Positions 32,386 to 54,588 of a DNA stretch of 64,000 nucleotides are shown piece after piece (within the stretch, counting starts at the first letter, position 1; every line of letters starts with the position of its first letter). The DNA lies in contig CAZOMT010000002.1 of the NCBI GenBank assembly GCA_964581255.1, positions 8,775-72,774 of the forward strand. Reading direction: 5' to 3'. The position numbers and the translations under genes are program-made. Origin of the DNA: an uncultured Thermodesulfatator sp. Lineage in GTDB: Bacteria; Desulfobacterota; Dissulfuribacteria; Dissulfuribacterales; QOAL01. The notes beneath the pieces were generated by a model. It ran no database searches and had not been told where the DNA came from. It saw only the letters and a program-made list of their open reading frames with translations.

Positions 32386-32964
32386 TTGACTCAAAAAGGA
32401 TATATCAAACCCACTATTTCTTTTGTTGCGGCAGCAATCTTTCTTGCTGGAGCATGGATGGCATGGCACGCTTGGCAAATATCCCATGAACGAGTCAACG
32501 AGGCCATACCGCCAGGTCTTGTGTTAAAAAATATCACTTACACAAAGTCCAGCCACGGCAGGGCCATATGGACATTTTCTGCCCAACAGGCTGAACACAA
32601 CAGGCAAAGCGGGCTTATCAAGGCCAAAAAGATCCATCTCGTATTTCACGATAAGATCCGTGGGGACATCGAACTTACTGCAGACATGGGGCAGATACAT
32701 TCTGGCAACGAGACCATCAGGGTAATGGGGCATGTTCGAATAGAAGACCAGCCAGACAACATCCTCACCACCGACTGGATGGAATATGATGAAAGAAGCG
32801 GGATATTGAAGACCACTGCCCCTGTCCATATAAGGCTCGATGGCTCTACCATCGAGGGCAAGGGGCTTAGTATAGACACCAAACAGAGGAAACTTTTCGT
32901 TTCGTCCGACGTAAATGCCACCCTGGACAACGAACAGGATGGCAATAAGGATCATGAAGGCTAA
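32386..32964 (+). CDS. lptC: LptC-family protein, second copy
   Basis: TTG start, single N-terminal TM ([17 protein letters not shown]), 192 aa. It has the repeated beta pattern ([22 protein letters not shown]; [20 protein letters not shown]) typical of LptC/OstA-fold proteins, and an LptB paralogue follows directly. Confidence 0.65.
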
Positions 32965-33682
32965 ACGGCTTGCTGCCCAGCAACTTGAGAAGACATTCAA
33001 TGCCAGAAAGGTAGTGGATGGCCTTTCCATTCACGTGGATTCTGGTGAGATAGTTGGCCTCCTTGGCCCAAATGGAGCTGGCAAGACGACTACCTTCTAT
33101 ATGGTGGTGGGTCTGCTCAAACCTGACAAGGGGACTGTTTTCCTGGATGAAAACGAGCTTACAAAACTTTCCCTCTCGGCCCGTGCAAGGGCAGGCATCT
33201 CCTATCTTCCCCAGGAACGCTCTTTATTCCAGGGCTTGACAGTGGGACAAAACCTTCTTGCAGTGCTTGAGTTTCAAGATATAACTAGGCAGGAACAAAT
33301 CAAACGCAGAGACGAATTGATAGTCCAGTTCAACCTTGACCATGTGGCATCCAACCTGGCAAGTTCCCTTTCTGGAGGTGAAGCAAGGCGCCTTGAGATC
33401 GCCAGAGCCCTTGCCATACAGCCTATGTTCATGCTTCTTGACGAACCCTTTGCTGGAATCGATCCCATCACCGTCACCTCGATTCAGGATATAATCAAAA
33501 GACTCAGGGCCCAAGGTATCGGCATATTGATCTCAGACCATAATGTAAGAGAGACCCTGCGGATATGCGATAGGGCCTACATATTGAACCAAGGCAAGCT
33601 GCTGGAGGCTGGAGACCCTGAAAGGTTGTCGCAAAGCCCCTTGGTAAGGGCCGTATACCTAGGGGATAATTTCAGGCTCTGA
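32954..33682 (+). CDS. lptB: LptB-type ABC ATP-binding protein, second copy
   Basis: [48 protein letters not shown] and C-terminal VYLGDNFRL are all shared with the copy at 14895..15629. The start could be 32939 or 32954; it overlaps the lptC-like stop. Confidence 0.85.
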
Positions 33683-34841
33683 ATGCCTTTATCCTGAGCC
33701 TGTTCAACAAGAATTCTGCTATGGCCCTGGCTCCCCGTTCAGCTGCAGTAGAGCCTGGTTCATTGTAAAAGGTGTAATCGAAGGCCTTCTTTTGCTTTTC
33801 AAGATACAACTCTTTGTGGGTGGAAAACGCCCTCTTCAAGGCGGCATCGAGGCCTGTGTCCACATCATCCACCACTTGTCCCAGGTTCCAGTGATAATAA
33901 AACGGATTGTCCTGCCACTGGACATGGTGGCCATTCAAGAAGATGCAAGGGCGAGGCTCAAACAAAAACTCGTAGACTTGGCTGCTCACATCTCCAAGAT
34001 AGATGTCTGCTGCCCGCATGTACGTCATATCCGCTGAAGCATGGCTTCCTAGATCAATGTAGATATTGTTTACCTTGTGATACCTTTTTGGCAGCCTGGC
34101 CTTGTGACGTTTACGCCTCTTGAATAACACCACATGTGGCGCAAAGATCAGGTTGTATTCGGGATGCGTCCTGAAAAACTCCATTACCTTAATGCCCATG
34201 GGTGCCCACGAAGAAACCCTCTGATCAAAATGTGGATTGTATACTATGACAGGCCTTGAATTGTCGAAAAGACGCTTTCTTTCAGGCCTCAAGCCCTGCA
34301 CTACCTCAAATTTGGGCCACCCCACCACTGCATATCTGCCTTCCTTCAGGTATCCCAACTCCTTCAGCCTGTCTACATACTTCTGGCCAGGCAGCAGTGT
34401 GAAGTCAAAGGCCCCTGATCTATCGTCAAAGCCCCCTTCCCTGTCTCCAGCTCCATGCCTTGCATGGATCATTATGAGATCCTTCAGGCCAAATCTCGTC
34501 TTCAGCTGCATGCAATTTCGCTCTGGTGCCACCAGGGCATCCATTTCCTGAAAAAAGGCAAGATTGTTCTTAAGTACCATCCTCTTGCGCTTGAAGGCCC
34601 ATTTGGAAACCACTGGATCAATGAAACGATAATACCAGGGCACAGCAAGCAACTTGTATTTGCACCTATGACCAGGATAAAGAGTGCTTATTGCCCTTGC
34701 AAAAGCCATTTCTTGGGTAGATGAGCAGGCTATCACCACCTCTATCTCAGGATAAATCCTGGAAAGCTCAAAAGCGTATGGCGCGGCATGGGGAACCTGA
34801 TGCACGAAGTAATGATTGAAGAGAAAACAGACCTTTATCAC
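33672..34841 (-). CDS. hypothetical protein, possibly TagF-like CDP-glycerol/alditol-phosphotransferase fold
   Basis: 389 aa. VIVYNPHF and [25 protein letters not shown] resemble the YAPTxR and ADxLITDYSSxxFDF blocks of the Glyphos_transf family. Recognised only by eye. Its 3' end overlaps the lptB copy convergently by 11 nt. Confidence 0.35.
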
Positions 34842-34848
34842 AATGAAT

Positions 34849-36033
34849 TTATTTTCTTAGCTTTTTTTCTTTTTTGGCTCGCAAAACATCTTCGAAAACT
34901 TTCAGATAACCTTGGACCGCCTTGTCCACTGAGAAATATTCGGCCCGTTTTTTAAGTTCTTCACGATTCCATCTGGTGTCAAGGCCTTTCAATATGGCCT
35001 CCGACATAGCCTTGTCATCTCCAACAGGCACAAGAATCCCAAATCTGCCATCCTCGATTATCTCGCCTGCCCCGCCTGGAGAATCTGTGCTCACAACAGG
35101 GCAACCTGCTGCCAGTGCCTCGATCAGCACACCTGGAAGCCCTTCAAATCTGGATGAAAGACAAAAAAGATGGGCCTTGGACATAAACGCCAGGGGGTTG
35201 GGCACGAAACCATGAAGATCCACCTTGTCTTCGACTCCAAGCTTGGAAATAAGCCTTTTTAGAGCCTGCCGTTCCTTTCCCTCTCCGAGGATTATGAGTC
35301 TCATGTCCCTTTGCCTTACGGCATGGCTGAAGGCCCTTATAAGCATTGCAAAATCCTTCTGTGCCGAAAGTCTTCCAGCCGCAAGGATCACAGGAGGCAC
35401 CTGCCGTTTATCCCCACTCAACCAAGGATGGTCCACATGCTCCCTGGCCTTATCCAGAAGCCCTGGTGTGAATGTGGGATTATAAACCACCCTGATCTTT
35501 TCCACAGGGATGCCCGTTGCCCTGGAGGTGTCTTCGGCAATGTTTTTTGATACTGCCACGAAACCATCAGCATGGGGATAAAGCCGGCATGACTTGATAA
35601 ATCTAACCCTCTTCTTGAGACCCTTTCCTGTTTTTAATGAAGAGGTTAGATGATTACTGAGCCTTATCACCAGAGGAATACTGGTGCCAGAAAGGAGTTT
35701 TGCCGAAATGGCCGCTATGTGTGCATGATTGGCTGCAGATAACAATATGTCCATATCTGCATGCCTTTCAGCCTTTCTGAGGCATGCCACAAGGGGCCAA
35801 CGGCTTAGATCCATCTTGCGCTTCTTGGATAACTTTTTAAAAAGAGGTCTCATAAGCCCCTTGCCCAACTCCTCAACCAATACGCCATCTGCCACATCTT
35901 CCAGATAGCCCCCTTTTTCCACAACTATGAATCTTACCTTGTGGCCTTGCTCCTCAAAGGCCTTTGCCAAGGTGAGAACCCTTCTTGTGGCCCCGCCCCA
36001 TGTAAGGCCGAAGATGAAGATTCCAATTTTCAT
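34849..36033 (-). CDS. glycosyltransferase family 4 (GT-B)
   Basis: N-terminal GGATRRV and C-terminal SRFEGLPGVLIEALAAGCPVVSTDSPGGAGEII (E-x7-E motif); 394 aa. Confidence 0.85.
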   Translation of the reverse strand: MKIGIFIFGLTWGGATRRVLTLAKAFEEQGHKVRFIVVEKGGYLEDVADGVLVEELGKGLMRPLFKKLSKKRKMDLSRWPLVACLRKAERHADMDILLSAANHAHIAAISAKLLSGTSIPLVIRLSNHLTSSLKTGKGLKKRVRFIKSCRLYPHADGFVAVSKNIAEDTSRATGIPVEKIRVVYNPTFTPGLLDKAREHVDHPWLSGDKRQVPPVILAAGRLSAQKDFAMLIRAFSHAVRQRDMRLIILGEGKERQALKRLISKLGVEDKVDLHGFVPNPLAFMSKAHLFCLSSRFEGLPGVLIEALAAGCPVVSTDSPGGAGEIIEDGRFGILVPVGDDKAMSEAILKGLDTRWNREELKKRAEYFSVDKAVQGYLKVFEDVLRAKKEKKLRK

Positions 36034-37745
36034 GGAAGCCTTTTCACCTGTTTGGCCTGGCCGTTCTCGAGTCTGTAGGCTATATCGGCCGCCTTCAGCA
36101 TGGTTTCCTGATGGGAAATGGCAAGCACTGTTACAGAATCCCTAAGGCCTCTCAAGGTGTGGCATATTTCCAGCTCTGTTTCCGGATCCAAGGCACTCGT
36201 GGCCTCATCCATGATAAGAAGTGCAGGCCTGTTGACGAGCGCCCTAGCTATGGTGATCCGTTGCCTCTGGCCCCCTGAAATAAGGCCCCCCCTTTCACCA
36301 ACGAGGCTGTGGATGCCCTTTGGCATCCTTGAAACAAACTCCCAGGCACCTGCCTTTTTGAGGGCATCTATTACAGCCTCTTCACTTATGCTTTCATCTC
36401 CAAGGGTAATATTGAAATAGACCGTATCGTGCAGAAGGAGGGTCTCCTGTGGCACATAGCCAACCATTTTCCTCCATTTCCTGAGATCTATTTCCGAAAT
36501 AGGGATATCGTCTACCATTACCTTGCCTGCCTCAGGTTGAATCAGACCTGTTATCATATCCACAACGGTTGTCTTTCCTGCTCCAGATGGCCCTATCAAG
36601 GCCGTAAAGGAACCCTTTGGAACCTCCATGGAGAGCCCATGCAATACAGGCCGTTCATTGTAACTCAGATCTATGTCCACGAGGGAAATGGCCCTTTCAA
36701 ATCGGGGAGGCATACTGCCTGTAAATCTCTCCCTTTTCTCTTCTGCTTCCTCGATCCTCGAAAGGAGAGACCAGTAGGCACTTTCAGCTATGACCATGGA
36801 CTGATGCTGTTTTTGGGCCCGCTGAAGGGCCTTTAGAATCTTTGCAAGCATATAGACCATCACCAGCACATTAGAGAGGGGAAGATCCAGAAGCACCAAC
36901 GCCACGTAGAGGCCTATTGCAAAGAAAATGGTGGTAAGCGGCTCTTGAAGCGCCCTCAACGCCTCCTTGCTGAACACTTGCCTTTGAAGGGCCTTTTTAA
37001 GATCCACTGTCTTTTCGGCAAGTATCCTCTCGGCAGCGTATTCTCTTGCCATTGCCTTAAGTGGCTTTATGGAAAGAAGGATATCAGTGAGAAAGGACAG
37101 AAGGGACTTGAGGAGCAATGTCTGGTCACGTCCTGCCCTTTTGGCACGCCTTACCATGAAGCGCAGGACATAAAGGATTCCAGTACCCATTATGACAGCC
37201 ATGACCGTCGCCTTCCATGCCACCATAAGTGCTACTGTTGTATAAACAGCGGCATTCATAAGCATGGCAATCAGCCTCATGCCAAAAAGATACGCATCTG
37301 CCGACCTGGTGGCCTCGGTGGCAAAAGAGTTGGCTATGCTGCCCGTAGGCTGACGCACATAATAGGTCCAACTGCTGTTAAATATTGCCTTGAGCAGGGC
37401 CAGACGAAGATCTGTTGCCACGTTGGCAACCATATACCCGACCTTCCTGTTGGCCAGAAGCACCAGTAGCACCTTGATCACTATGCTCATAACAAAAATT
37501 ATGAGCAAAAGGCCGATGGTGGGCTCGGCCCCAAAAAAAGCAAACAGGCTGGATATGGCCCTTTCCAGGGATGAGCTCGCCTTGTGTGCCTCTTCGGCCC
37601 CATTCACTCCTCCTGCCGAAAGGCTCAAAAGTGGCAGGAGCATGGACATGCCAAACCCCTCTGCAATCCCCGCGATGAGCATGGCAAAGAGCGTAAGAAG
37701 ACTCTGAGCAGGATATCTTTTGAGAAAGCTTATGATGAATCTCAT
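36030..37745 (-). CDS. ABC transporter, fused permease/ATPase, MsbA-like lipid exporter type
   Basis: Six-TM N-domain, Walker A GPSGAGKTT, signature ISGGQRQR and Walker B LLIMDEATSALD; 571 aa. 4-nt overlap with the GT4 gene. Confidence 0.85.
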   Translation of the reverse strand: MRFIISFLKRYPAQSLLTLFAMLIAGIAEGFGMSMLLPLLSLSAGGVNGAEEAHKASSSLERAISSLFAFFGAEPTIGLLLIIFVMSIVIKVLLVLLANRKVGYMVANVATDLRLALLKAIFNSSWTYYVRQPTGSIANSFATEATRSADAYLFGMRLIAMLMNAAVYTTVALMVAWKATVMAVIMGTGILYVLRFMVRRAKRAGRDQTLLLKSLLSFLTDILLSIKPLKAMAREYAAERILAEKTVDLKKALQRQVFSKEALRALQEPLTTIFFAIGLYVALVLLDLPLSNVLVMVYMLAKILKALQRAQKQHQSMVIAESAYWSLLSRIEEAEEKRERFTGSMPPRFERAISLVDIDLSYNERPVLHGLSMEVPKGSFTALIGPSGAGKTTVVDMITGLIQPEAGKVMVDDIPISEIDLRKWRKMVGYVPQETLLLHDTVYFNITLGDESISEEAVIDALKKAGAWEFVSRMPKGIHSLVGERGGLISGGQRQRITIARALVNRPALLIMDEATSALDPETELEICHTLRGLRDSVTVLAISHQETMLKAADIAYRLENGQAKQVKRLP

Positions 37746-37786
37746 TGCAAGGGGAAAGGTCTTTTTTATTGCGGAAACGTTATGGC

Positions 37787-38968
37787 TTAAGCCGGATTGT
37801 GAACAGACTCAAAGGCCTTTGCTATCTTTTCAATCTGTTGGATCGAGTGAGCGGCACTTAGGCTGCATCTTAAAAGAGCGGTTCCGTCAGGTGTGGCTGG
37901 CGGCAACACCATATTCACATATACTCCCCTTTCCAGGAGACCGTTCCAGATCCTGAATGCCTCATCTACCTGCTCACACCTTACAGGAATAATAGGGCTT
38001 GCCTCTGGCCCAACCTTGAACCCAAGCTCCTTCAACCTCCCGTATAGGGCAAAGGCGTTTTCCCAGAGCCTTTGCCGCAACTGAGGTTCTGAACGAATTA
38101 TGGCAAGGGCAGCCTTTGCTGCGGCTATGTTTGCAGGAGATGAAGAAGCAGTGAAGACATAGGGCCTGCTGGCGAAACGAATAATTTCCAGTTCTTCATG
38201 ATTGCTTGTGCAAAAGCCACCAACTGAACCAAGGCTTTTACTAAAGGTCCCCACCACAAAGTCCACAGCATCCTCGACCCCGGCTTCCTCTGCCAGCCCT
38301 CTGCCCCTTTCTCCAAGGACTCCCAGGGAATGGGCCTCGTCCACCAAGAGGTAGGCACCATATTCTGCCTTCAGGGCCGCAATCTCTTTAAGGGGTGCCC
38401 TATCACCCAGCATACTATAGAGACCTTCCACCACAATGAGGACATCCCCATCCTGCTGTTTCATTCTCTTCAACCGTTTTTCCAGATCATTCACGTCGTT
38501 GTGGCGAAACCGGAATACTTGAACACCGCCAAGACGGCAGCCGTCATAGATGCTGGCATGGCAATCTGCATCAAGCAGTACCACGTCCCTGGGACCCACT
38601 ATGGTGGAAAGCATGGCCAGGTTGGCGCTGTAACCCGTGGTGAATACGATGGTCCTTGACCTGCCGAAAAATTCCGAAAGGTCTTGTTCCAGTGCTACAT
38701 GGGACGAATATGTCCCATTGGCCATCCTGGAACCTGTAGTGCCTGTTCCTTCATGTTCAATTGCCTTGCAAGCAGCCTCAATACATTCATGCCTGAGGGG
38801 CAGGCCCAGGTAATTGTTGGTCCCAGCCAGGATGACCCTGTTGCCATTTATAACCGCTTCTGTACTGGACAAAAGCTCCTCAATAACAATGTCAAAAAAT
38901 GCGCTGCACTGTTCCTCAATCGTCCTTATGGAAGAAGAGATCTTTTCAAACTTGTCAAAAAGCCCCAT
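37787..38968 (-). CDS. spt: alpha-oxoamine synthase, serine palmitoyltransferase-like
   Basis: NNYLGL, GTGTTGSRMANGT, DADCHASIYDGC, RFRHND and the PLP-lysine block GTFSKSLGSVGGF. This matches my recollection of Sphingomonas SPT better than BioF or Kbl. Confidence 0.7.
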   Translation of the reverse strand: MGLFDKFEKISSSIRTIEEQCSAFFDIVIEELLSSTEAVINGNRVILAGTNNYLGLPLRHECIEAACKAIEHEGTGTTGSRMANGTYSSHVALEQDLSEFFGRSRTIVFTTGYSANLAMLSTIVGPRDVVLLDADCHASIYDGCRLGGVQVFRFRHNDVNDLEKRLKRMKQQDGDVLIVVEGLYSMLGDRAPLKEIAALKAEYGAYLLVDEAHSLGVLGERGRGLAEEAGVEDAVDFVVGTFSKSLGSVGGFCTSNHEELEIIRFASRPYVFTASSSPANIAAAKAALAIIRSEPQLRQRLWENAFALYGRLKELGFKVGPEASPIIPVRCEQVDEAFRIWNGLLERGVYVNMVLPPATPDGTALLRCSLSAAHSIQQIEKIAKAFESVHNPA

Positions 38969-38973
38969 CTATC

Positions 38974-39219
38974 TCAAGCCTCGGTAAGCTTCTGTACCTG
39001 GATAGCGAGATCTTCAACAGTGCGTACCTCTGAAAGGACATTTATGGGGATTGAAAGATCAAAGGCATCTTCCAGATTTGCCAAGATTTCCATGGACTTT
39101 AGGGAATCTATGGCCAGGTCACTTTCTATGTCCATTCCAGGTTTTATCTCCACACTGCCAGAAACATATGGCTGAAGTATCTCCACTATCTTTTCCAGTA
39201 TGACCTTATCTGCCTTCAT
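38974..39219 (-). CDS. acp: acyl carrier protein
   Basis: 81 aa, with the phosphopantetheine site DLAIDSLKSMEI (DSL). Confidence 0.85.
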   Translation of the reverse strand: MKADKVILEKIVEILQPYVSGSVEIKPGMDIESDLAIDSLKSMEILANLEDAFDLSIPINVLSEVRTVEDLAIQVQKLTEA

Positions 39220-39316
39220 GAGACATATCCTTATGTTAGCATCCGTCTTGGAAAAGAATGGTTACCCATTGGCCCCATTTTCAAGAAGAGTTGAGAATGC
39301 TAAAAAAATTATTGTT

Positions 39317-40270
39317 TCAAATCAATCTGCTTTTAAGGGCATCTGCCAGGACAATCCTTGGCGCCCAGTTCATATCCTGACAGATTCGGCTATTATCGCA
39401 GACCCAGGCGGGATATGCAAGCTCCCTGGCCTTTCCAGGCGTAAGCATTGGGGGTTTCCTGCGGAATCGGGACACAGCAGCATTTATGTAGCCGGCAGCA
39501 AACAGGAGCCCAAAAGGGATGCGAAGCCTCAATATCCTTTTTTTCAAGACCCGCTCGGCCACTTCTGCTACTTCCTGCCAGGAATATCCCAGCGGAACAC
39601 CATCGTGCAACTCGTAGGTTTTGCAAAAGACCTCATTGCTGGAAAACCAGCAAAAAACAGCCTCTGCGAGATCGTGAACATGAAGTAGAGAGAACCTATT
39701 TTGGCCGTTTCCTAGGCAAGGAACCACTCCCTTGCAAATCCATTCAAGGATGGGACGCATCTGTTTATCGCCAGGGCCATAAACTGCCGGAGGCCTGAAA
39801 ATCGTCCAGGAAAGCCCTTCATGAAACCTTTTCAGGGCCTCTTCACCCCTTTTCTTGCTTAGGGCATAATGGGATAATTCCGGATTTTTCGCCGCAAGGG
39901 ACGAGACAAGAAGAAGGCGTGGCGGCCTTTTATGCCGAGAACAGACCTTTGCAAGGTGGGCCACCGCCTCCTTGTTTATCCTTTCAAAATCCTTCAGGTT
40001 CAGACCCCTCACCAGTCCAGCACAGTGGATAGTGGCGTCTGCCTCCTTTGTGAGCCTTTCAAGGCTAGAGACATCGTCAAGCTCTCCCTTGACCCATTCT
40101 AGCCCAGACTGATGCCAGCATTTGTCTGTTGAGCAGTCTCTGACAAGGGCCTTTACCCTGAAGCCAGCAAGGAGAAATCTTCTGGCCACAGCTCCACCTA
40201 TAAATCCGGTGGCACCAGTAATTGCAATAACTCCTTTAAATTTGGACGGACAGGAAACAAAGCAAGCCAT
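39317..40270 (-). CDS. NAD-dependent epimerase/dehydratase-family (extended SDR) reductase; candidate 3-keto-sphingoid/ceramide reductase
   Basis: ITGATGFIGGAV Rossmann motif and YALSK (YxxxK); 317 aa. Its position downstream of ACP/Spt mirrors the Caulobacter cerR position (recollection). Confidence 0.6.
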   Translation of the reverse strand: MACFVSCPSKFKGVIAITGATGFIGGAVARRFLLAGFRVKALVRDCSTDKCWHQSGLEWVKGELDDVSSLERLTKEADATIHCAGLVRGLNLKDFERINKEAVAHLAKVCSRHKRPPRLLLVSSLAAKNPELSHYALSKKRGEEALKRFHEGLSWTIFRPPAVYGPGDKQMRPILEWICKGVVPCLGNGQNRFSLLHVHDLAEAVFCWFSSNEVFCKTYELHDGVPLGYSWQEVAEVAERVLKKRILRLRIPFGLLFAAGYINAAVSRFRRKPPMLTPGKARELAYPAWVCDNSRICQDMNWAPRIVLADALKSRLI

Positions 40271-40518
40271 AATTCAGTATAACAGGAATATAAAAGATGT
40301 GGAGCTCGCCATTCAAAGGAAAAAAGATGGGATCTTCCGGCAGGTGAGCACCAAAGGCCAGTAAAGTGTTGAAGGCGCACGCAAGTAGCACATAGTTATT
40401 TGGGCCAATCGAATAATTTGACTGGATTTTCTGAACGGGATCTTTCAGCTACTTGAGGAGAAAGAGATGGCAGGAAATAATTTCAGGCCCCCTGGGGATT
40501 GGCTTAAAAAGGCGATGA

Positions 40519-41175: not shown

Positions 41176-41214
41176 TGATCCCAGCTCCAGACATGGACAA
41201 ATCCAAATGAAGGC

Positions 41215-43014: not shown

Positions 43015-43584
43015 ATTTATAGATATATACCTTTCAGTGGATAAATTTTCCTTTTAACTTGCTCTAACAAGAAGTTTTTATCATTCTTCAAATCCAGTAA
43101 CGGGCACAAGTGGTCAAAAGAATCTTCTTCTCCTCTAATCACTACTTGAACCCTTCACTTAAGAAGTGCAAATAATTATAAATTCTTTATGTCATGAGGA
43201 TTTGATAGAAAAATCTTGTTTTTTTACTTTATCAATAAGTTTAGATTTAAAATCAAAAAAGGGAAAAGTTGCTATTCTGAATTAAACTAAAATTTATGAT
43301 ATCCTCCTGCTCACTCTCCCCGGAATGCTGCTGGAAACGAAAAGACAGCCTGGATCCCGGGCGGGAAAATAGAAAATCTGAATATGCTGTCACTCTAAAA
43401 ACATGCTTTCGGAAAACAAGCCTTTACAGATTTTTTGATATATTTGGGCAAATATTAATAAATATTAACACGACTAACAAGAATAAAGGCGGTTCTAAAA
43501 CAGAAAAAGCAAAATTTTTTACCCTGTTGTGCTGCCTTGACTCAACAGTTATAAACAATACACCGTAACCATTCTGGCCCTTTT

Positions 43585-44529: not shown

Positions 44530-44795
44530 GGCCGCCTGGCAAGGATTGCCTTTTCATACCAAATGTGCACACACTTGAAATATCGGCAATGACTGCCCGC
44601 CATTCTTGCTTCATCCGGCAAAGGAGTCCCATAGGGAAATTGGCCATGAAGGTGGAGATGAACAGAGCAAGATTATTCCAGACCATCTGACATCAAGAAT
44701 TTGGGGCTTAGAGATTCCTGGGCAAGCCCAAGCCTTGTAAACTCTTGGTCCTTTCTTCTATGGCCACAAGTCCTTCATGGAATCCTTGCCACCAA

Positions 44796-46780: not shown

Positions 46781-47116
46781 ACCTTTTGGAACTGCTCATG
46801 ATGATGAAACTTCTATGAAGCACTTCAGGCCACTTTTTAAATTGCCGTTAGTTCGTTAACGTCGTTGCCCGAGAAAATAATCCTTAAAATATCAAATAGA
46901 TATCTGCCATTTATTTTGTCATACACCTAGTTCTTGGATCGAAATTTTCAGAACTTTGGAAGCGGCCTTCAAGCCCAGGCATGATTCCATACCCCCATTC
47001 CACAGGCTCAAAAATGTGCTGCCTTACGAAGAGTTGGACTTTTAATACCAGTGAATCTATATTAATTGCAGATAGATTTAGATGTTAACACCGTTTTGAT
47101 TTTGGGAGCAAGTTTC

Positions 47117-47917
47117 ATGAACGCGATAATTCTCAGTGCAGGCCAGGGCAAAAGGCTTCTGCCTCTGACATCAAAATCCCCCAAATGCCTGCTCGATATC
47201 TGTGGGAAAACCATATTGGAATGGCAAGTTGAGACACTTGCCGGTGAAAAAGTCGATGAAATCATCGTGGTAACTGGCTATGGATCGGAAAAGGTTGAAC
47301 AACTGGTCCAGAGACGGCTCAAACAATACGGAGTAAGGACCTTCTACAATCCGGATTTTGCCACTTCTGACAACCTTATAAGCTGCTGGAAGGTACGCCA
47401 TGAGATGAAGGGCGAATTCATACTCTTGAATGGGGATACCCTTTTTGAACCGGCAGTCTTGGAAACACTCCTAAGTTCACCTGAAGCATCCATAACTGTT
47501 ACGGTCAGCTCGAAGGACAAATATGACTCAGACGATATGAAGGTCGTAACAGAGGCGGGAAGGCTCCTGAAAATAGGCAAAGAACTGCCCCTGGATCGCG
47601 TCTCTGCAGAATCCATCGGACTCATATATTTCAGGGGGCAGGGACCTGAAATCTTCTCAACAGCCCTTGATGAGGCTGTCCATGATCCAGGCTCCAGAAA
47701 GAAATGGTATCTTTCAGTGATTGATGCCATAGCCGCAAACAATCCTGTAATGACATGTTCGGTCACCGGCCTGAAGTGGTGCGAAATTGATTATCCCAAG
47801 GACCTGAAGTTGGCAGAGCCTGTAGTGTCTGCGATCAAACTCGATGGCAGAAGTCAGGACAGCCACCAGATGTACATGGGGCAAGGCCTCGTACACGCAA
47901 AGGGCAGGGCCTGCTGA
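47117..47917 (+). CDS. sugar/alcohol-phosphate nucleotidyl(cytidylyl)transferase, LicC/IPCT-like
   Basis: MNAIILSAGQGKRLLPLTSKSPKCLL (GxGxRL motif), LLNGDTLF and WCEIDYPKDL. GGGAG lies 8 nt upstream of ATG 47117; the track start 47066 is less likely. Confidence 0.75.
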   Translation: MNAIILSAGQGKRLLPLTSKSPKCLLDICGKTILEWQVETLAGEKVDEIIVVTGYGSEKVEQLVQRRLKQYGVRTFYNPDFATSDNLISCWKVRHEMKGEFILLNGDTLFEPAVLETLLSSPEASITVTVSSKDKYDSDDMKVVTEAGRLLKIGKELPLDRVSAESIGLIYFRGQGPEIFSTALDEAVHDPGSRKKWYLSVIDAIAANNPVMTCSVTGLKWCEIDYPKDLKLAEPVVSAIKLDGRSQDSHQMYMGQGLVHAKGRAC

Positions 47918-48037
47918 ACAGGTAGTAAAAGACAAGGACCTTTTTTGAAAGGGGGCGATCATTGACTCCGCCCTCTTTCCAATAGCTTGCCTGCCCCCCC
48001 TTCAAGTAAAAATCTCCACTGGCAAAAAGGAAAAAGG

Positions 48038-49138
48038 ATGATAGCAGAACGGTACATCATGCGGGAAATCTTAAAACCTGCTGCTGTAATCTGCAGTATC
48101 CTGATATTTATTTACGGCAGTTTCATCGCGGCGAGATATTGGGCTGCGGCTGCCCAGGGACAACTGCCTGGCTCTACCGTGATGATCCTGGTCTTTTTCA
48201 GGATTGCCGTGGCCATGGAGCTATTACTTCCGACTACCCTTTTCCTATCGGTTGTCCTGGCACTTAGCCGTCTTTACAGAGATGGCGAGATGACCGCAAT
48301 GTTCGCCTGTGGCATAAGTCCCATTAGAATCACCTTGGCCGTTTTAGCCATATCCCTGATCATAGCCATGCTGGTAGCCTGTTTTTCCCTGGTCATAAGG
48401 CCTTGGGCATGGGATGAATTCTTCACCATGAAGGCACAGGCAAAGGCCAGCTTCGACCTTACCAGGATGAAGGCCGGGGTCTTCTATGAAATCTGGCATG
48501 GCCGTAGAGTAATCTTTGCAGAAAAGGTCAATAACAAAAAAAATCAGGCAGAAAATATCTTCATACAGACCAAGCACGATGACAACCTTCAGATTATATA
48601 CGCAAGACATGCCAGACAATTCTATGACAAGGGACGAAGGACGCCCATACTCATACTCTCAGACGGAAAGGACTATGAATTTGCAAAAAAAAGTGACAAA
48701 GAGGTCATACTGCAGTTTGAACAGTCTGAGCTCTCACTGGAGCCAAGACAAATTGTCAAAGAAGAAAGGGTAAAGGCTGCCCCGACCCAAAAGCTTCTCC
48801 ACTCCTCTAGCCTTGAAGAGATAGCAGAACTTCAATGGAGGCTTATTACTCCGATATCTACTGTGCTTCTGGCACTTCTTGCAGTGCCTCTCAGCAGATC
48901 CTCTCCCAGGCAAGGAAAATACGCCAAGCTTCCCCTTGCCATATTGCTGTTCGCCGCATATTACAACCTGAGCGCAATAGCAAAAAAGTGGGTTGCCCAG
49001 GGTGTGTTAGCCGCATTTCCAGGGCTTTGGTGGAGCCAGATACTGCTTGGGATCCTCATCTTGTTTCTTTTCTGGCAACCTCAACTTCACACCATGCTAC
49101 GAAGAAAAAGGCTTCATGCCAAGATGCCGTCAGGATAG
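48038..49138 (+). CDS. lptF: LptF/LptG-family permease (LptF-like)
   Basis: MIAERYIMREILKPAAVI start typical of the YjgP/YjgQ family. Three TM segments, a periplasmic beta-jellyroll region, then three more TM segments; 366 aa. Confidence 0.8.
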   Translation: MIAERYIMREILKPAAVICSILIFIYGSFIAARYWAAAAQGQLPGSTVMILVFFRIAVAMELLLPTTLFLSVVLALSRLYRDGEMTAMFACGISPIRITLAVLAISLIIAMLVACFSLVIRPWAWDEFFTMKAQAKASFDLTRMKAGVFYEIWHGRRVIFAEKVNNKKNQAENIFIQTKHDDNLQIIYARHARQFYDKGRRTPILILSDGKDYEFAKKSDKEVILQFEQSELSLEPRQIVKEERVKAAPTQKLLHSSSLEEIAELQWRLITPISTVLLALLAVPLSRSSPRQGKYAKLPLAILLFAAYYNLSAIAKKWVAQGVLAAFPGLWWSQILLGILILFLFWQPQLHTMLRRKRLHAKMPSG

Positions 49139-49154
49139 AGGGCTCTTGTTCACC

Positions 49155-50222
49155 ATGAAGATTCTAGACCTTTATATCGGAAAGAATTTTCTCAAATTTT
49201 TTCTCGTGGTCATCATCATTCCTGGCGTTTTGTTCAGCCTCTTTCAGCTGTTGTCAGAGCTTGATTCTGTGGGCAAGGGCACCTACACCATGTGGGATGC
49301 CATGATCTTTATAGCACTCACCTCACCCAAGAGGTTCATGGATCTTGTTCCAATAACAGCCCTCCTCGCCGGCATAGTAGCCTTGGGGCGTATGGCAGAC
49401 CGTTCTGAACTGATTGCCATGGAGGCATCTGGCCTTTCTGTCGCCAGGATAACCATTTCTGTCCTTGGGGCATGCAGCCTCATCATGGCCGCAGCCGTTC
49501 TATCCAACGAACTCATCGTTCCTCCAATGGAACAAAACGCTCGATTGATGCGCGCGCGAGCGCTTTCTACCAAAGGCGTCACCTTTACCCAAAAAGGATT
49601 TTGGGCCAGAAGAGGGCAGGCCTTCATTCACGTGAACAAGCTCATTGGTAAGGATGCAGCAGAAGATATAGACATATTCTCTTTTGACGCTAAAGGTGAT
49701 CTCGAAAGCTTCATACATGCCCAAAATGGGGCTATTACAGGGAAAGGCCACTGGATCCTTTATGACGTTACCGAAAAGATCGTCAAGGGATTGGACATAG
49801 AGACAAGAACAGTTGAAAGACTTACTTTGAAATCATTTCTTAGCCAAGACCAGGTTAGCGCATTGGAGCTTCCGCCAGAGAGCCTGTCGGCGCAAGACCT
49901 CATAGACTATATCCATGCCCTTGAAAAAAGTGGACAGAATGCTGACCACTACAGGCTTGCCCTTTGGAGGAAATTGAGCCAGCCACTTACAACTGGCGCC
50001 ATGACTATACTTGCCCTTGGATTTGTATTCGGCTCTACCAGGAAGTTGAGTGCAGGCCTACGGATAACCGCAGGATCTTTCGCAGGAATCGCCCTCTATT
50101 TTTTCGACCAGATAACCATGCATGTCGGCCTACTAATGGGCATGAGGCCTGTAGTGGTTGCCTTCATCCCCTTTGCTGTGATATCAACCATTGCCTTCTT
50201 GAGACTCAAGCCTTCCTTATAG
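49155..50222 (+). CDS. lptG: LptF/LptG-family permease (LptG-like)
   Basis: MKILDLYIGKNFLKFFLVV start, same topology as the preceding gene; 355 aa. Confidence 0.8.
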   Translation: MKILDLYIGKNFLKFFLVVIIIPGVLFSLFQLLSELDSVGKGTYTMWDAMIFIALTSPKRFMDLVPITALLAGIVALGRMADRSELIAMEASGLSVARITISVLGACSLIMAAAVLSNELIVPPMEQNARLMRARALSTKGVTFTQKGFWARRGQAFIHVNKLIGKDAAEDIDIFSFDAKGDLESFIHAQNGAITGKGHWILYDVTEKIVKGLDIETRTVERLTLKSFLSQDQVSALELPPESLSAQDLIDYIHALEKSGQNADHYRLALWRKLSQPLTTGAMTILALGFVFGSTRKLSAGLRITAGSFAGIALYFFDQITMHVGLLMGMRPVVVAFIPFAVISTIAFLRLKPSL

Positions 50223-50386: not shown

Positions 50387-51385
50387 TTAAAGCCTGAGAT
50401 AAAAGTGCCGTATTTTTCCTTTTGCAAAGCCCTGTTCGTACGACTTGAAAACCCGTTCCTCCATCTTGCACATCCAATAGTTCTCTTTCTGCCTGCTGAT
50501 TTCAAAGATGAAATATTTGGCCCTTCGTTCCTTCCTCGGACTCACAGAAAGCGCTGATGGTGCCTCGACCACTGGTATCTGGCCTGCCGGCCCTTTTATG
50601 AAATATAGGGAAGTAAGGTGCGAGTGGCCGTGGAGCACAAGCCCACAGCCATGCTTTTCAATAAGCTGCAACAGCTCTCCAGCGTCAACCAGTTCCTTTC
50701 TCTTATCCACTACAGCTGGTGCTGGTGGATGGTGGATGGCAAGGACCTGGAACAACCCTCTTTGCCTCGTTCGTTGCAAAATGGATTCTAGCCTCTCAAG
50801 CTGCCCTCTGCCCACCTTGCCAGTGGCGAGGTGCCAAGGACTTGGAGCTGCCGTGGCCAGCCCTATTAGTGCCACAGCCTTTCTTACACGCACCACAGGG
50901 AAAATTGCTTGAAGAGCGGAAGGGGATTTGTCCTTACAGAATGAATATGGAGCATAGGCCTGCCACTGGAAAAAGGTTTTGGCCCAAGGCATCCTTACGT
51001 AAGTATCGTGATTGCCAGGAAGAACTAACAGATCGTCTGGCTTGCCAACCCTGCTTAGCCACATGGCAACCTTTTTGAACTCCTGTGGAAGTCCCAGATG
51101 GGTAAGATCCCCTGTGATTATTGTCTGATCAGCCCTAATCTGTTGCAGTTCTTGCTCAAGTATGGCAAGAATCCTGTAATCGAACTCTTTTGAGCGTCCC
51201 AGTTTCCATCTGAGATACCCCAATATCCTCTTATTCAGGAGCTGGCGCCATGAGAGGCTGCCTGTGCAGGCAATATGCAGGTCTGAAAGATGTGCAATTG
51301 TCAAAGGCCCCTTGTCCGAAGGAAAGGGCTCATCCCAGGCATCTCGTTCAGTCGTGATTTTTTTTGCTGTGAAGATATCGACCAT
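50387..51385 (-). CDS. metallophosphoesterase (calcineurin-like)
   Basis: IAHLSDLHI, TGDLTH, GNHD and LHGHSH metal-binding motifs; 332 aa. Confidence 0.82.
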   Translation of the reverse strand: MVDIFTAKKITTERDAWDEPFPSDKGPLTIAHLSDLHIACTGSLSWRQLLNKRILGYLRWKLGRSKEFDYRILAILEQELQQIRADQTIITGDLTHLGLPQEFKKVAMWLSRVGKPDDLLVLPGNHDTYVRMPWAKTFFQWQAYAPYSFCKDKSPSALQAIFPVVRVRKAVALIGLATAAPSPWHLATGKVGRGQLERLESILQRTRQRGLFQVLAIHHPPAPAVVDKRKELVDAGELLQLIEKHGCGLVLHGHSHLTSLYFIKGPAGQIPVVEAPSALSVSPRKERRAKYFIFEISRQKENYWMCKMEERVFKSYEQGFAKGKIRHFYLRL

Positions 51386-51417
51386 TTCTGTTATCTATAC
51401 TGGAAACTGACTGTCAA

Positions 51418-52629
51418 ATGCAATTTTCCATGAACCTCTATCTCTACTTCATAAACGATTGTCCTGTAAAAATATGGGGTCTTACTCCAAGGTGCCGTGC
51501 CCAAAAGGTACTTATGGGCCAGGCAGTAGCCGTTGAGGATCTTTCCAAACTCAAACCTACGGATCACGTCCTCATACTCAGGGGAGACTATATATTTGAA
51601 GACAGACTGCTCAAACACCTTGCTGCTACCCCAAACATCCTTCTTCTCGTAGAAGAAGGCCGCAAGCAGATTCCTGTTGCCGTCCACGTCCCTGGATCAC
51701 TTGCAAAGCAGGGGATCAGGATCTTGCAGCAGGGCAGGATACCAAAAGGGCTTGAGGGAATATCCGTTCATACCATAGAGAGTGTTTCTGTGGCCTTTCA
51801 TGAAAAGCTCAGGAAATTTGAGCCACCCTTTGCAATCCACGTAACCGAAAAAGATGTCAACGATATTGAAAAACGCCTCTTCAACTGGTCGTACAAAGGT
51901 GTGACCGACCTCGTTACCAAATGGCTCTGGCCACTACCGGCAAGATGGGTGGTAAGGCAGTGTGTACGTCTTAATCTTAAACCTAATCATATCACCTTCA
52001 TTGGTTTTTTACTTGTTCTACTGGCTGGATACCTCTTTGCAAAGGGCAGGTTGGGCTGGGGATTGTTGGCAGGATGGCTCATGACCTTTCTCGATACGGT
52101 TGATGGAAAACTTGCCAGGGTCACAGTGACTTCTAGTAAATTTGGCCACTATTTCGACCACATAATCGATATCATCCATCCCCCCATCTGGTATCTGTTA
52201 TGGGGGATTGGCACTGTTCAAACAGGACAATACCATTTGCACATTTCACCATCCACCCTCTATATGACGATTTTCGCAGGATACATTGCAGGACGGTTGG
52301 CAGAAGGTTCGTTTCAGTGGTTCATAGCAAGGTTTGGCATATTTTGCTGGAGACCAATGGATTCGTTCTTCAGGCTGATAACGGCAAGACGAAACCCTTG
52401 CATGATCCTTCTGACTGTATCCTACCTCATTGGACGACCAGACTGGGGGCTAGTCTCGGTAGCCTTTTGGACAGTGGCCACTACTCTTTTCCTTTTGGCC
52501 CGGCTGACATATGCATTTTATCAAAAGCATTCAAAGGGTGAAGTAAAATCGTGGCTCCAGGAAATAGATTTTACCTCGGGAAAGAAGAATCTGGCCATAC
52601 GCTGGTTTACCAGGCACGATTCCACCTAA
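51418..52629 (+). CDS. CDP-alcohol phosphatidyltransferase with about 150-aa soluble N-terminal extension
   Basis: DTVDGKLARVTVTSSKFGHYFDHIID matches D-x2-DG-x2-AR-x8-G-x3-D-x3-D. Multiple TM segments follow; 403 aa. Confidence 0.85.
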   Translation: MQFSMNLYLYFINDCPVKIWGLTPRCRAQKVLMGQAVAVEDLSKLKPTDHVLILRGDYIFEDRLLKHLAATPNILLLVEEGRKQIPVAVHVPGSLAKQGIRILQQGRIPKGLEGISVHTIESVSVAFHEKLRKFEPPFAIHVTEKDVNDIEKRLFNWSYKGVTDLVTKWLWPLPARWVVRQCVRLNLKPNHITFIGFLLVLLAGYLFAKGRLGWGLLAGWLMTFLDTVDGKLARVTVTSSKFGHYFDHIIDIIHPPIWYLLWGIGTVQTGQYHLHISPSTLYMTIFAGYIAGRLAEGSFQWFIARFGIFCWRPMDSFFRLITARRNPCMILLTVSYLIGRPDWGLVSVAFWTVATTLFLLARLTYAFYQKHSKGEVKSWLQEIDFTSGKKNLAIRWFTRHDST

Positions 52630-52636
52630 ACCCGCG

Positions 52637-53626
52637 ATGACAAGGCAGCACACTTGTTTAACAGCCCAAGCGAAGGCTGGAATGCTAATAAACCCCCTGG
52701 GCGGATCCAACAAAAAGATAAGTGGAATACTATTCAAAACGGCTAAAGAATCAGTAGGCACCGTAAAAAAAGTGGTTACCCCTATGGATGTTGAGGCAGC
52801 CCTCAAAGACTTTAGGGAAAAAGGTGTCAACCTACTGATAGTGAGCGGTGGAGATGGTACTGTGCAGGCGGTTCTCACAACCCTTTTCGGGAAAGGCCCT
52901 TTTGACACTCTACCTGCGCTTGCGATCTTGCCTGGAGGAACCACGAATCTCATAGCAAAAGACGTAGGAATTTGCATTTCTCAAAAACGGGCTATCAAGG
53001 AATTGATGAATCTTTTACGGGAAAACAGGTTGCTGTCCTGCGCCACTTTAGCCAAGAGGCATGTATTGCATCTCAACTGCCAAGACAGAGTCGACGAATA
53101 TGGCATGTTTCTCGGGGCTGCTGGCATATCCCAGGCAGTAGCAGCCTTTCAGAAACAGAAGATGCATCACCTCACGTGCAGAAAGGCCAACATATTGCTC
53201 GCCGCCATCAAACTCATGGTGGCATCCATTGTTGGACGTGGCACAAAGGATCACTCAGAAAGGCTCAAAATTCGGCTTAATGGCAAAACCATCTTGGACA
53301 AGAGGTTTCTGCTGGTCCTGGTCACGACCCTCGAAAGGCTATTTTTCGGTATAAGGCCCTTTTGGGCCCAAATGGACGGCCCTATTCATCTGACTGCTGT
53401 TGCAAGAAGGCCGAAATATTTTCCAAAAGTCCTATTGGGGCTAATCTTCAAAAGATTCAGCAAGCACCTGACGAAAGAAAATGGATATCTTTCATTCAAT
53501 GCCCACATAATTGAACTCTATGCCCCAAAAGGGGTCGCCCTGGACGGACAGATAATTAAAAACCCTGACCCTGATATACCCATAGTTGTAAAAGATGGTG
53601 GGGAAGTATCATTTATCAAGCTATGA
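52637..53626 (+). CDS. DAGK-catalytic-domain lipid kinase (YegS/BmrU/sphingosine-ceramide kinase superfamily)
   Basis: MLINPLGGSNKK and LLIVSGGDGTVQAVL plus ILPGGTTN motifs; 329 aa. It starts 7 nt after the preceding gene. Confidence 0.8.
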   Translation: MTRQHTCLTAQAKAGMLINPLGGSNKKISGILFKTAKESVGTVKKVVTPMDVEAALKDFREKGVNLLIVSGGDGTVQAVLTTLFGKGPFDTLPALAILPGGTTNLIAKDVGICISQKRAIKELMNLLRENRLLSCATLAKRHVLHLNCQDRVDEYGMFLGAAGISQAVAAFQKQKMHHLTCRKANILLAAIKLMVASIVGRGTKDHSERLKIRLNGKTILDKRFLLVLVTTLERLFFGIRPFWAQMDGPIHLTAVARRPKYFPKVLLGLIFKRFSKHLTKENGYLSFNAHIIELYAPKGVALDGQIIKNPDPDIPIVVKDGGEVSFIKL

Positions 53627-54588
53627 CTTGCGCCATTCCCTATCCCCTCTTGAGAGAAATACAAAAATATTCGCAAACCCACATAGTATCACCTGGCCTC
53701 CACGCCTTAATGGATGAGATTACAAGACGCCATGGCCCAGGGGTAAAGGCCATTTTATATTATGGTTCCTGCCTCCAATCTGGCAAGGAATTCGACGGTA
53801 TCGTGGATCTTTTTGTCCTAGTGAACGATTATGGCTCGGTTTACAAACGGCCTTGGCTCAGTTTCCTGAACTGGCTCCTGCCTCCAAATGTATTCTATCT
53901 GGAGCTTCCAATAGAAAAAGGCAAACGCATCAGGGCAAAATACGCCATAATATCTCTCGCGGACTTTTTGGAGAAGACTTCTGGAAAGACATTCCACTCG
54001 TACTTCTGGGCACGTTTCAGCCAGCCTGTCGCATTGATTTTTTTCTCACATCCAAGGATAAAAAGGGCGGTTGAAAATGGGCTTGCCTGTGCCTTAATGA
54101 CCTTTCTAAAAAACGTGGTGCCATGCGCGGCTCCTCGCTTTGATGCCAAGAAGCTGTGGCTTACGGGCCTAAATTTAAGCTACAGCGCAGAACTCAGGCC
54201 AGAACGGGCCTTTCGCCTCGAAAGGCTATGGGCAGAACAAGGGGAGATATTGGAAGCCGTAACCGAGGTTGCCATAAAGGCTCTTCCTTACGAAATAACC
54301 GTTGAAACTGAAGGAGAAGACATCTTATATCTGGCAAACATACCAAGGCGCGCCTGTGCTCTTTGTTGCACTGCATGGAGGTTTAGGCGCATATACGGAA
54401 AACTTCTTTCAGTGCTTCGTCTTTTCAAGGCCAGTTTCACATTCAGGGCCGGGGTGGATTACGCAATCTGGAAGATAAAAAGACATTCTGGAGTGCAGAT
54501 AGAGGTCAGCCCCTTTCTTAGAAGGCATCCGGCCCTTGCAATGGTGGTACTATCCTGGAGGCTTTTTAAGAGCCGGGCTGTGCGGTGA
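53623..54588 (+). CDS. hypothetical protein; candidate Tam41/Mmp37-like nucleotidyl(cytidylyl)transferase
   Basis: ATGA overlap with the lipid kinase gene. YYGSCLQSG, IVDLFVLV, NVFYLELP...RAKYAIISLADFLE and FHSYFWARFSQPVALIF line up by eye with yeast Tam41 blocks YGSGV..Q, IDLI.GV, GVYFNPF...VKYGVVS...LL.D and FYLAGRLQKPVKIL (recollection). Confidence 0.4.
   Translation: MTCAIPYPLLREIQKYSQTHIVSPGLHALMDEITRRHGPGVKAILYYGSCLQSGKEFDGIVDLFVLVNDYGSVYKRPWLSFLNWLLPPNVFYLELPIEKGKRIRAKYAIISLADFLEKTSGKTFHSYFWARFSQPVALIFFSHPRIKRAVENGLACALMTFLKNVVPCAAPRFDAKKLWLTGLNLSYSAELRPERAFRLERLWAEQGEILEAVTEVAIKALPYEITVETEGEDILYLANIPRRACALCCTAWRFRRIYGKLLSVLRLFKASFTFRAGVDYAIWKIKRHSGVQIEVSPFLRRHPALAMVVLSWRLFKSRAVR

Follow-up and report, generated by a model that had tools for sequence, protein, structure and literature searches.

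Transport of bacterial sphingolipids to the outer membrane is just beginning to be understood, so far in Caulobacter alone, and the closest described counterpart of the locus treated here is the 17-gene region of Caulobacter crescentus (CC_1152-CC_1168; CCNA_01210-01226) described by Olea-Ozuna et al. in 2024 for the anionic ceramide phosphoglycerates CPG and CPG2 (PMC11324152). The present analysis concerns positions 32386-54588 of a 64,000-nucleotide stretch of contig CAZOMT010000002.1 (GCA_964581255.1, an uncultured Thermodesulfatator sp. of the Desulfobacterota), hereafter the window, in which genes for ceramide synthesis, head-group chemistry, and lipopolysaccharide (LPS) transport (Lpt) stand side by side. 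We consider it probable that this region is the Desulfobacterota version of the locus for anionic phosphosphingolipid synthesis and export represented by CC_1152-CC_1168, a reading built on sequence comparison and on analogy with Caulobacter. The locus would thereby extend the ceramide-phosphoglycerate-type system beyond the alpha-, beta-, and gammaproteobacteria to sulfate-reducer lineages.

The Caulobacter region contains five ceramide genes (aasR, cerR, acpR, and spt, together with cerS) and six genes for CPG/CPG2, namely the characterized ceramide kinase CC_1160, the CDP-alcohol transferase CC_1159, the Tam41-like CC_1161, the phosphoesterase CC_1158, the MobA/CofC-like CC_1153, and CC_1152, which bears PF00483, PF01128, and PF12804; it further holds the TagF-like CC_1167 (IPR007554), a Wzx-type flippase candidate (CC_1166), and genes annotated in 2024 as encoding LptC2, LptF2, and LptG2 (PMC11324152). 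The chemistry of the CPG2 head group is unsettled even in Caulobacter, and delta-proteobacterial homologues were mentioned for CC_1161 only (PMC11324152). In the preprint of Uchendu, Isom, and Klein, lptF2, lptG2, and lptC2 were deletable only in the absence of spt or the ceramide kinase, LptF2 and LptG2 formed a complex, and both pulled down the single LptB of LPS transport, with no lptB duplicate present in the locus or on the chromosome (bioRxiv 10.64898/2026.04.12.717747). LptF2G2 of Caulobacter thus borrows the LPS ATPase, and the role of LptC2 was left open, the authors' caution stemming from its apparent restriction to Caulobacter (bioRxiv 10.64898/2026.04.12.717747). These Caulobacter-centered papers examine alpha-, beta-, and gammaproteobacteria (PMC11324152; bioRxiv 10.64898/2026.04.12.717747). 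The preliminary description of the window knew of no described case of an Lpt paralogue that serves a lipid other than LPS, a statement superseded by the annotation of LptC2, LptF2, and LptG2 in 2024 (PMC11324152) and their testing in 2026 (bioRxiv 10.64898/2026.04.12.717747).

Two further arrangements provide points of comparison. A sphingolipid operon of the same kind has been shown for Escherichia coli UTI89, and the sole lptFG of Sphingomonas wittichii is reported in its sphingolipid region (bioRxiv 10.64898/2026.04.12.717747). Using the window spt as a distant blastn query, we located one chromosome with an annotated spt, that of E. coli 2018-05-2CC (NZ_AP027877.1, 741.8-752.4 kb), where a locus of the UTI89 type runs yghO (the bacterial ceramide synthase gene, bCerS)-FAAL-epimerase-ACP-spt and continues into a second lptG-lptF pair. 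In what follows, related loci retrieved from genomes and metagenomes carry numbers prefixed with L, this E. coli locus being L039. It lies between glcC and yghS in the order yghO-FAAL-epimerase-ACP-spt-lptG-lptF-YtfJ-...-Wzx-like, and PGAP calls its permeases plain LptF and LptG. Of 5426 E. coli genomes, one was matched at a complete locus with this distant DNA query, a count that is not a frequency estimate.

Protein families were assigned with Pfam and NCBIfam profiles at their curated cutoffs and with Protein Data Bank (PDB) profile searches, Pfam being searched additionally at E<=10 for the CpgC-position, TagF-like, and secreted 314-aa proteins. From the listing of open reading frames (ORFs) and these searches of the window, we recovered 20 credible genes at 32386-54588, arranged in seven blocks, in which the locus copies of lptB and lptC are written lptB2 and lptC2:

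32386-33682 (+), block 1, lptC2-lptB2
32386-32964 (+), lptC2 (PF06835, 78 bits; TIGR04409, 79.5 bits against a cutoff of 38)
32915-33682 (+), lptB2, likely start 32939, 247 aa (TIGR04406, 343 bits against a cutoff of 240)
33672-43014 (-), block 2, a long operon of the next entries down to the FAAL gene
33672-34841 (-), TagF-like putative glycerophosphotransferase, counterpart of CC_1167 (sub-threshold PF04464, E=0.003, 16.9 bits)
34849-36033 (-), GT4 glycosyltransferase, putative accessory head-group enzyme (PF00534, 126 bits; PF13439, 68 bits)
36030-37745 (-), ABCB-type half-transporter, candidate inner-membrane flippase (ABC_membrane and ABC_tran)
37787-38968 (-), Spt, serine palmitoyltransferase (NF047599, 613.6 bits against a cutoff of 500)
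38974-39219 (-), dedicated acyl carrier protein (ACP), AcpR-like, directly upstream of spt (PF00550)
39317-40270 (-), NAD-dependent epimerase-family reductase, CerR-like (PF01370, 85 bits)
40519-41175 (-), DUF2959 lipoprotein (PF11172, 288 bits; lipobox LFGC)
41215-43014 (-), FAAL, a fatty acyl-AMP ligase/acyl-ACP synthetase, AasR-like, in the same operon as spt (NF006624, 731 bits against a cutoff of 600)
43585-44529 (+), block 3, secreted 314-aa protein (signal peptide, three invariant cysteines)
44796-46780 (-), block 4, the next two genes
44796-45617 (-), MobA-like nucleotidyltransferase, counterpart of CC_1153 (PF12804, 50 bits)
45614-46780 (-), GNAT-type bacterial ceramide synthase, bCerS/YghO-like (PF00583, a weak 24.5 bits against a cutoff of 20.7)
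47066-50222 (+), block 5, nucleotidyltransferase-lptF-lptG
47066-47917 (+), sugar/alcohol-phosphate nucleotidyltransferase, counterpart of CC_1152 (PF12804, PF00483, PF01128)
48038-49138 (+), lptF, ORF from 47987, likely start Met18 at 48038 (TIGR04407, 329 bits against a cutoff of 230)
49155-50222 (+), lptG, ORF from 49047, likely start 49155 (TIGR04408, 332 bits against a cutoff of 240)
50387-51385 (-), block 6, metallophosphoesterase, counterpart of CC_1158 (PF00149, 51 bits)
51418-54588 (+), block 7, the last three genes
51418-52629 (+), CDP-alcohol phosphotransferase, CpgA-like, a membrane protein with predicted transmembrane (TM) segments (PF01066, 41 bits against a cutoff of 22)
52637-53626 (+), DAGK-family lipid kinase, CpgB/ceramide-kinase-like (PF00781, 59.5 bits)
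53623-54588 (+), 321-aa protein in the CpgC position (G-S...D-x-D motif, nucleotidyltransferase-type)

This content agrees with the 20-gene lipid locus that the preliminary description had read from the same region, with the named families at or near the positions it gave; the DUF2959 lipoprotein and the secreted 314-aa protein are additions to it. The profile scan that it had proposed bore out most of its labels, left "TagF-like" at a PF04464 match that exists but falls below threshold, and failed to return "Tam41-like" and "MsbA-like", both of which are taken up below. A 90-aa ORF at 43296-43568 (+), of odd composition and with neither homologue nor family match, is probably no gene.

The likeness to Caulobacter is extensive. 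Pfam sets are equal for the counterparts of CC_1152, CC_1153, CC_1158, CC_1159, CC_1160, CC_1168, and CC_1155/1156, the order phosphoesterase-CpgA-CpgB-CpgC is identical, and the ceramide set, the TagF-like protein, in-locus lptF and lptG, and an LptC paralogue are common to both. The differences are that the window locus has an extra LptB paralogue, whereas the single LptB of Caulobacter serves both complexes; that it adds the GT4 enzyme, the DUF2959 lipoprotein, and the secreted 314-aa protein and has no counterpart of CC_1157; and that its host belongs to an anaerobic Desulfobacterota-type lineage. The locus is not a new kind of machine: the modular reading of the preliminary description, in which synthesis, head-group chemistry, and Lpt-type export form one unit, is largely right and was already described in Caulobacter and its relatives. 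Gene content and linkage in more than 20 related loci uphold that module, in which the lptFG pair has the status of candidate paralogues of the locus's own. What is new relative to Caulobacter is the wide spread of the locus in Desulfobacterota, the lptC2-lptB2 pair, and the loss of an arginine, R91, in the LptBs of such loci; the ABC-type flippase candidate and the secreted 314-aa protein are further novelties of this variant.

The core genes, which lie within 37787-46780, correspond to the bacterial ceramide pathway set (Spt, AcpR, AasR, CerR, and bCerS), with dihydroceramide as the predicted product. For Spt, the BioF, Kbl, and CqsA models all scored under their cutoffs, and among solved structures bacterial serine palmitoyltransferases scored 400-411 bits, ahead of KBL (237), cysteate acyltransferase (207), and BioF (182). 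A grouping of this protein with BioF, Kbl, or CqsA had been named as evidence that would count against a sphingolipid locus; by its NF047599 and PDB scores it sides with the serine palmitoyltransferases. Compared with their counterparts in the E. coli spt locus, the core proteins show identities of 41-51% (Spt 51%, bCerS/YghO 44%, FAAL 44%, CerR 41%, and ACP 46%). For the GNAT-like protein, the identity of 44% extends over 373 aa of YghO, a member of the E. coli locus, and homologues at 38-41% identity lie just downstream of spt in the alphaproteobacterial loci L010-L013. By analogy with the described pathway, FAAL would load a fatty acid on the dedicated ACP, Spt would condense the acyl-ACP with serine, the GNAT-type bCerS would N-acylate the Spt product, and the epimerase-family CerR would reduce it to dihydroceramide.

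For the head group, the DAGK-type kinase would convert the ceramide to ceramide-1-phosphate, and the CpgC-position protein, the CDP-alcohol phosphotransferase, the two nucleotidyltransferases, and the metallophosphoesterase may together build a nucleotide-activated phospho-head group, of the phosphoglycerate type if the chemistry is as in Caulobacter; in the window lineage the TagF-like enzyme and GT4 may decorate it further. The order PF00149-PF01066-PF00781 at 50387-53626 recurs in L014, L016, L037, and L038, and the metallophosphoesterase retains its position ahead of CpgA in these four and in L035. A gene in the CpgC position follows the kinase in L014, L016, L037, and L038, and one is present also in L035, where no CpgB was found. 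In that locus (L035:11333-13624) the CpgA- and CpgC-position genes adjoin with no kinase gene between them.

The ceramide core could also carry a different head group, such as inositol-phosphate, glycerophosphate, or sugar-phosphate derived from a CDP-alcohol. The best NCBIfam matches, both sub-threshold, point in this direction, the nucleotidyltransferase matching inositol-1-phosphate cytidylyltransferase/DIPP synthase and the CDP-alcohol transferase matching archaetidylinositol-phosphate synthase; the window lineage adds the TagF-like enzyme and GT4, and the Caulobacter chemistry is, as noted, itself unsettled. Against this stand the match of the full six-gene head-group set and its order to the CPG2 genes and the absence of an inositol-phosphate synthase among the locus proteins searched with profiles. 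We judge such an alternative head group to be unlikely, albeit the most serious of the competing readings.

The decorating enzymes vary more among related loci. The TagF-like protein is present in L002, L005, L006, L009, L019, L021, L023, and L035 and absent in L014 and L018; its homologue in L021 has the same weak PF04464 match as the window protein, for which NCBIfam and PDB profile searches gave nothing significant. GT4 was found in some related loci only. In L021 (6646-9380), a Syntrophales contig from a metagenome-assembled genome (MAG), the locus lptF is followed by CTP_transf_3 and NeuB genes in the place of lptG.

The Lpt genes of the locus can be judged against canonical copies in the same window:

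13410-18124 (-), intact canonical operon kdsA (17312-18124)-kdsC-lptC1-lptA-lptB1 (14895-15629)-rpoN (13410-14888)
14895-16756 (-), lptC1-lptA-lptB1, reference copies (TIGR04409, TIGR03002, and TIGR04406 all pass)

The intact operon had been reported by the preliminary description, as had the paralogy of the locus copies, and both observations stand. The canonical copies lie in the same window; LptB2 shares 55% identity with LptB1, and LptC2 shares 20% with LptC1, so the locus lptB and lptC are true paralogues. No Lpt genes beyond those of the locus and the canonical operon were found in the window, and copies of lptA, lptD, and lptE are absent from the locus. For lptC2, the 192-aa form that starts with TTG at 32386 has a predicted TM helix at residues 11-29, which is lost from the 168-aa form that gene callers start at 32458; since a TM helix is found at the N-terminus of the more distant homologues in L014 and L018, the genuine protein is probably the longer form.

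The four locus proteins share with the canonical LptB2FGC complexes of E. coli, Enterobacter, and Pseudomonas (6mit, 6mhu, 5x5y) the four subunit families, the ATPase motifs, F90 and R150 of LptB, the glutamates of the coupling helices, and the TM anchor of LptC. In LptB2, Walker A, the Q-loop, LSGGE, Walker B, and the H-loop are intact, and the coupling-helix glutamate is retained in both LptF and LptG, where the LptG motif RSELIAMEASG is visible. They differ from the canonical complexes in that their genes stand among sphingolipid genes, in the 20% identity of LptC2 to LptC1, and in three LptB2 residues mapped on 6mit (R91 to Q, R92 to G, and R143 to A). We propose that the ABCB-type half-transporter flips the lipid over the inner membrane, and that a complex of the composition LptB2(2)-LptF-LptG-LptC2 then extracts it and passes it to the LptA-LptDE bridge shared with LPS; flippase role, complex composition, use of the shared bridge, the order of the steps, and the lipid product itself are all predictions.

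The linkage of these genes bears on what the Lpt paralogues export. The order lptC2-lptB2-(TagF-like-GT4)-ABC-Spt-ACP-CerR-FAAL is retained in L002, L005, L006, and L019, and lptC2-lptB2 lies beside the ABC exporter and spt in L014 and L018 too; L009 has an lptB beside the locus and no lptC2 match, L003 stops right after lptC2, and L014 carries its lptB-lptC pair at the opposite end of the locus, where it immediately follows the CpgC-position gene. Metagenomes scanned with an LptC2 alignment yielded 15 loci at 33-53% identity, and in all nine with enough flank lptC2-lptB2 stood beside the ABC exporter or another locus gene, with no other context observed; spt was reached in four of the nine (L022, L031, L032/L033, and L035). 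Taken over all related loci, wherever the flank suffices, LptC2 homologues (33-59% identity) have lptB2 and sphingolipid genes as their neighbors, so the linkage of lptB/lptC paralogues with spt, which the preliminary description had proposed as a test, is conserved and has no example outside a sphingolipid context.

The Lpt paralogues might nonetheless export a second LPS or another glycolipid and be merely co-located or co-regulated with the sphingolipid genes, the sphingolipid itself traveling by another route such as a nearby YhdP-type bridge. All four Lpt proteins pass LPS-export equivalog models, synteny with a YhdP-like gene 5 kb upstream is conserved, and substrate specificity is unreadable from sequence. 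The linkage, however, holds down to 33-37% LptC2 identity with no case outside a sphingolipid setting, and in Caulobacter deletion of the Lpt paralogues is lethal only where spt or cpgB is present. We therefore regard a substrate other than the sphingolipid as very improbable and continue to favor sphingolipid export.

The locus is a conserved unit over several Desulfobacterota orders. The genomes with the closest Spt are MAGs labeled 'Deltaproteobacteria bacterium' (73-84% identity), and more than 100 LptF homologues were found at 53-61% identity, with named sources among Desulforhopalus, Desulfobacteraceae, Desulfobacterales, Syntrophales, and Thermodesulfobacteriota MAGs. Locus-type LptB or LptF occurs in MAG relatives of Desulfopila and Desulforhopalus, and carriers of the locus include the MAGs JALSNW01, JAMOUE01, GCA_054024815.1, GCA_054005155.1, and GCA_035283845.1 and the ERZ25039514 genome that has a 1.06-Mb contig. 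Spt-encoding Desulfobacterota have been reported from Black Sea metagenomes, with Lpt unmentioned, and metagenome and lipidome studies flag sulfate-reducer lineages as likely sphingolipid producers (PMC11334938). The retention of an LptC paralogue in a distant anaerobic phylum supports a real role for LptC2 and weakens the preprint authors' reason for caution; on this and other points our findings refine, and partly contradict, specific statements of that preprint (bioRxiv 10.64898/2026.04.12.717747).

A residue-level difference separates locus and canonical LptBs at the site that corresponds to R91 of E. coli, as mapped on 6mit. Q, H, or G occupies this site in all 17 LptBs that adjoin LptC2 or sphingolipid genes, while R91 is retained, as F-R-K, in the two LptBs found in canonical operons (F90-R91-K92 in window LptB1, and Desulfuromusa), which make up the whole canonical-context comparison set. 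In neighbor-joining trees built without the motif columns, the residue-91 character needed 3-4 changes, compared with 13-18 for shuffled labels. We also tried to split LptB2 from LptB1 by identity, and this failed because LptB is too conserved: the canonical LptB of Desulfuromusa kysingii (in the context kdsA-kdsD-kdsC-lptC-lptA-lptB-rpoN) is 61% identical to LptB2. R91 sits in the LptB groove/Q-loop and cross-links to LptFG, and in E. coli its replacement by S, C, or H suppresses defects of the coupling helix and, in wild-type complexes, reduces ATPase activity; R91S mutants are viable (PMC5082905). Because of that viability, the change argues for altered coupling and not for loss of function, and we infer that LptB2 is an active ATPase with altered coupling. 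The residue-91 change is a natural experiment on the matching of Lpt ATPase and permease.

Whether the permease genes are likewise dedicated to the locus depends on how the single lptFG pair of the window is read. LptF homologues at 54-58% identity from several orders were, in five of five sampled cases, inside an NTPt-lptF-(lptG)-Mphos-CpgA-CpgB-CpgC block or beside spt, with lptG following in four, which fits a dedicated pair. The pair could instead be the only one of the genome, a shared permease driven by LptB1 and LptC1 for LPS and by LptB2 and LptC2 for the sphingolipid. The window holds no lptFG other than 47987-50222, its canonical operon comprises lptC-lptA-lptB only, the locus LptF and LptG score on the equivalog models like canonical proteins (329 and 332 bits), and in S. 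wittichii the sole lptFG is in the sphingolipid region. Yet lptFG is usually unlinked to lptCAB, so its absence from a window says little; the LPS-producing carriers Caulobacter and E. coli have two lptFG pairs; and the fact that LptB2 has systematically lost R91 suggests that its coupling partner or regime is a different one. Sphingomonas, which resembles the window in having lptF-lptG beside spt and head-group genes, has no LPS and one Lpt set, whereas the window organism has kdsA, kdsC, and lptA together with duplicated lptB and lptC. On balance we hold a shared sole permease to be rather unlikely, less so than a substrate other than the sphingolipid and more so than a different head group. 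Because lptB and lptC are duplicated, Caulobacter and E. coli have two pairs, and lptF stays in the locus, the balance of probability by analogy favors a separate canonical lptFG pair elsewhere in the genome.

A stronger proposal is that Desulfobacterota carry a complete, insulated second Lpt inner-membrane machine (LptB2-LptF-LptG-LptC2) reserved for an anionic sphingolipid, with an ATPase of its own whose groove has been retuned by Q or H in place of R91 and with the 314-aa secreted protein as a novel periplasmic or outer-membrane component of sphingolipid transport. We advance it tentatively, as somewhat less probable than its converse; if true, it would be the first case of an Lpt ATPase duplicated and specialized for a non-LPS lipid. 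The 314-aa protein, which we consider a candidate periplasmic or outer-membrane partner, is conserved at 30-62% identity in the examined Desulfobacterota loci that span its region (L006, L007, L014, L016, L031, and L032); Pfam (E<=10), NCBIfam, and PDB profile searches returned no match for it, and hhalign showed no likeness to LptA or LptC.

Several observations weigh against the Caulobacter-type reading or against its extension to an insulated machine. The likeness of the CpgA-, CpgB-, and CpgC-position proteins and of LptFG to those of Caulobacter consists of domains and gene order only. The CpgC-position protein, which the preliminary description had called Tam41-like, matched nothing in Pfam (E<=10) or NCBIfam and gave no Tam41/Mmp37 (IPR015222) signal; its sole PDB profile match, to the N-terminus of kanamycin nucleotidyltransferase, was marginal (E=1.3), although its position and its G-S/D-x-D motif fit. 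The flippase candidate is an ABC half-transporter in the window and the Wzx-like CC_1166 in Caulobacter. Locus-type LptBs form two or three clades on quick neighbor-joining trees, not one, and LptC2 of Caulobacter did not co-purify with LptF2 or LptG2 (bioRxiv 10.64898/2026.04.12.717747). Finally, the locus LptF is 33% identical to the LptF2 of the E. coli sphingolipid locus and 33% identical to canonical P. aeruginosa LptF, as near to the one as to the other, which also agrees with a shared permease; because of these equal identities, orthology to the studied LptF2 is at most putative. A representative search with LptF gave a smooth continuum of identity from 54 down to 30%. The E. coli locus, whose LptF2 and LptG2 are each just 33% identical to their window counterparts, further differs in having no lptB or lptC paralogue, no CpgA/B/C-type genes, and a Wzx-like flippase.

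An AlphaFold2 model of the CpgC-position protein, made without an alignment, had a predicted local distance difference test score (pLDDT) of 35 and was discarded. MsbA was considered as an identity for the ABC exporter, as the preliminary description had labeled it, and was rejected on scores of 236 bits against a cutoff of 602 (TIGR02203) and 176 against 867 (NF008381). The protein also falls under the HepA cutoff, its nearest solved structures being ABCB1/ABCB4 halves, PglK, and Sav1866, and it is best described as a generic ABCB-type half-transporter. Its gene directly adjoins spt wherever that junction is visible; L036 shows bCerS only. The DUF2959 gene, between the reductase and FAAL genes of the spt operon, occurs there only in the window, L002, and L006/L022 and is a lineage-specific insert.

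The region had earlier been called an island. A mobile genomic island was considered and rejected: GC content is flat, no tRNA or integrase marks a border, and the flanks are syntenic in relatives. The sole tRNA found in the window, at 1085-1171, is away from the locus borders.

Between the two lpt regions, 23268-29705 encodes a YhdP/AsmA-like protein of 1226 aa (PF13116), a kinase of the APH type, an HPP membrane protein, and an HDOD protein. The order YhdP-APH-HPP-HDOD-...-lptC2 is retained in L002, L003, and L019, and together with both lpt regions it makes up a 40-kb envelope-lipid neighborhood. Directly upstream of lptC2, 29775-32236 (+) encodes an SPFH/Band-7 protein whose C-terminus bears three zinc ribbons, as well as a 430-aa protein without a family match, both retained in L003, L004, and L019 and absent in L002 and L006. 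Farther to the left, 1657-10496 (-) holds a glycolytic cluster of tpi, pgk, and two GAPDH paralogues (one of them unusual, at 435 aa) around a 1448-aa PPDK_N/PEP-utilizer protein, with secG and a tRNA-Leu at its left end. On the other side, a V-type ATPase operon (subunits C/AC39, I, E, and more) starts about 2.5 kb downstream of the locus and occupies 57165-64000 (+).

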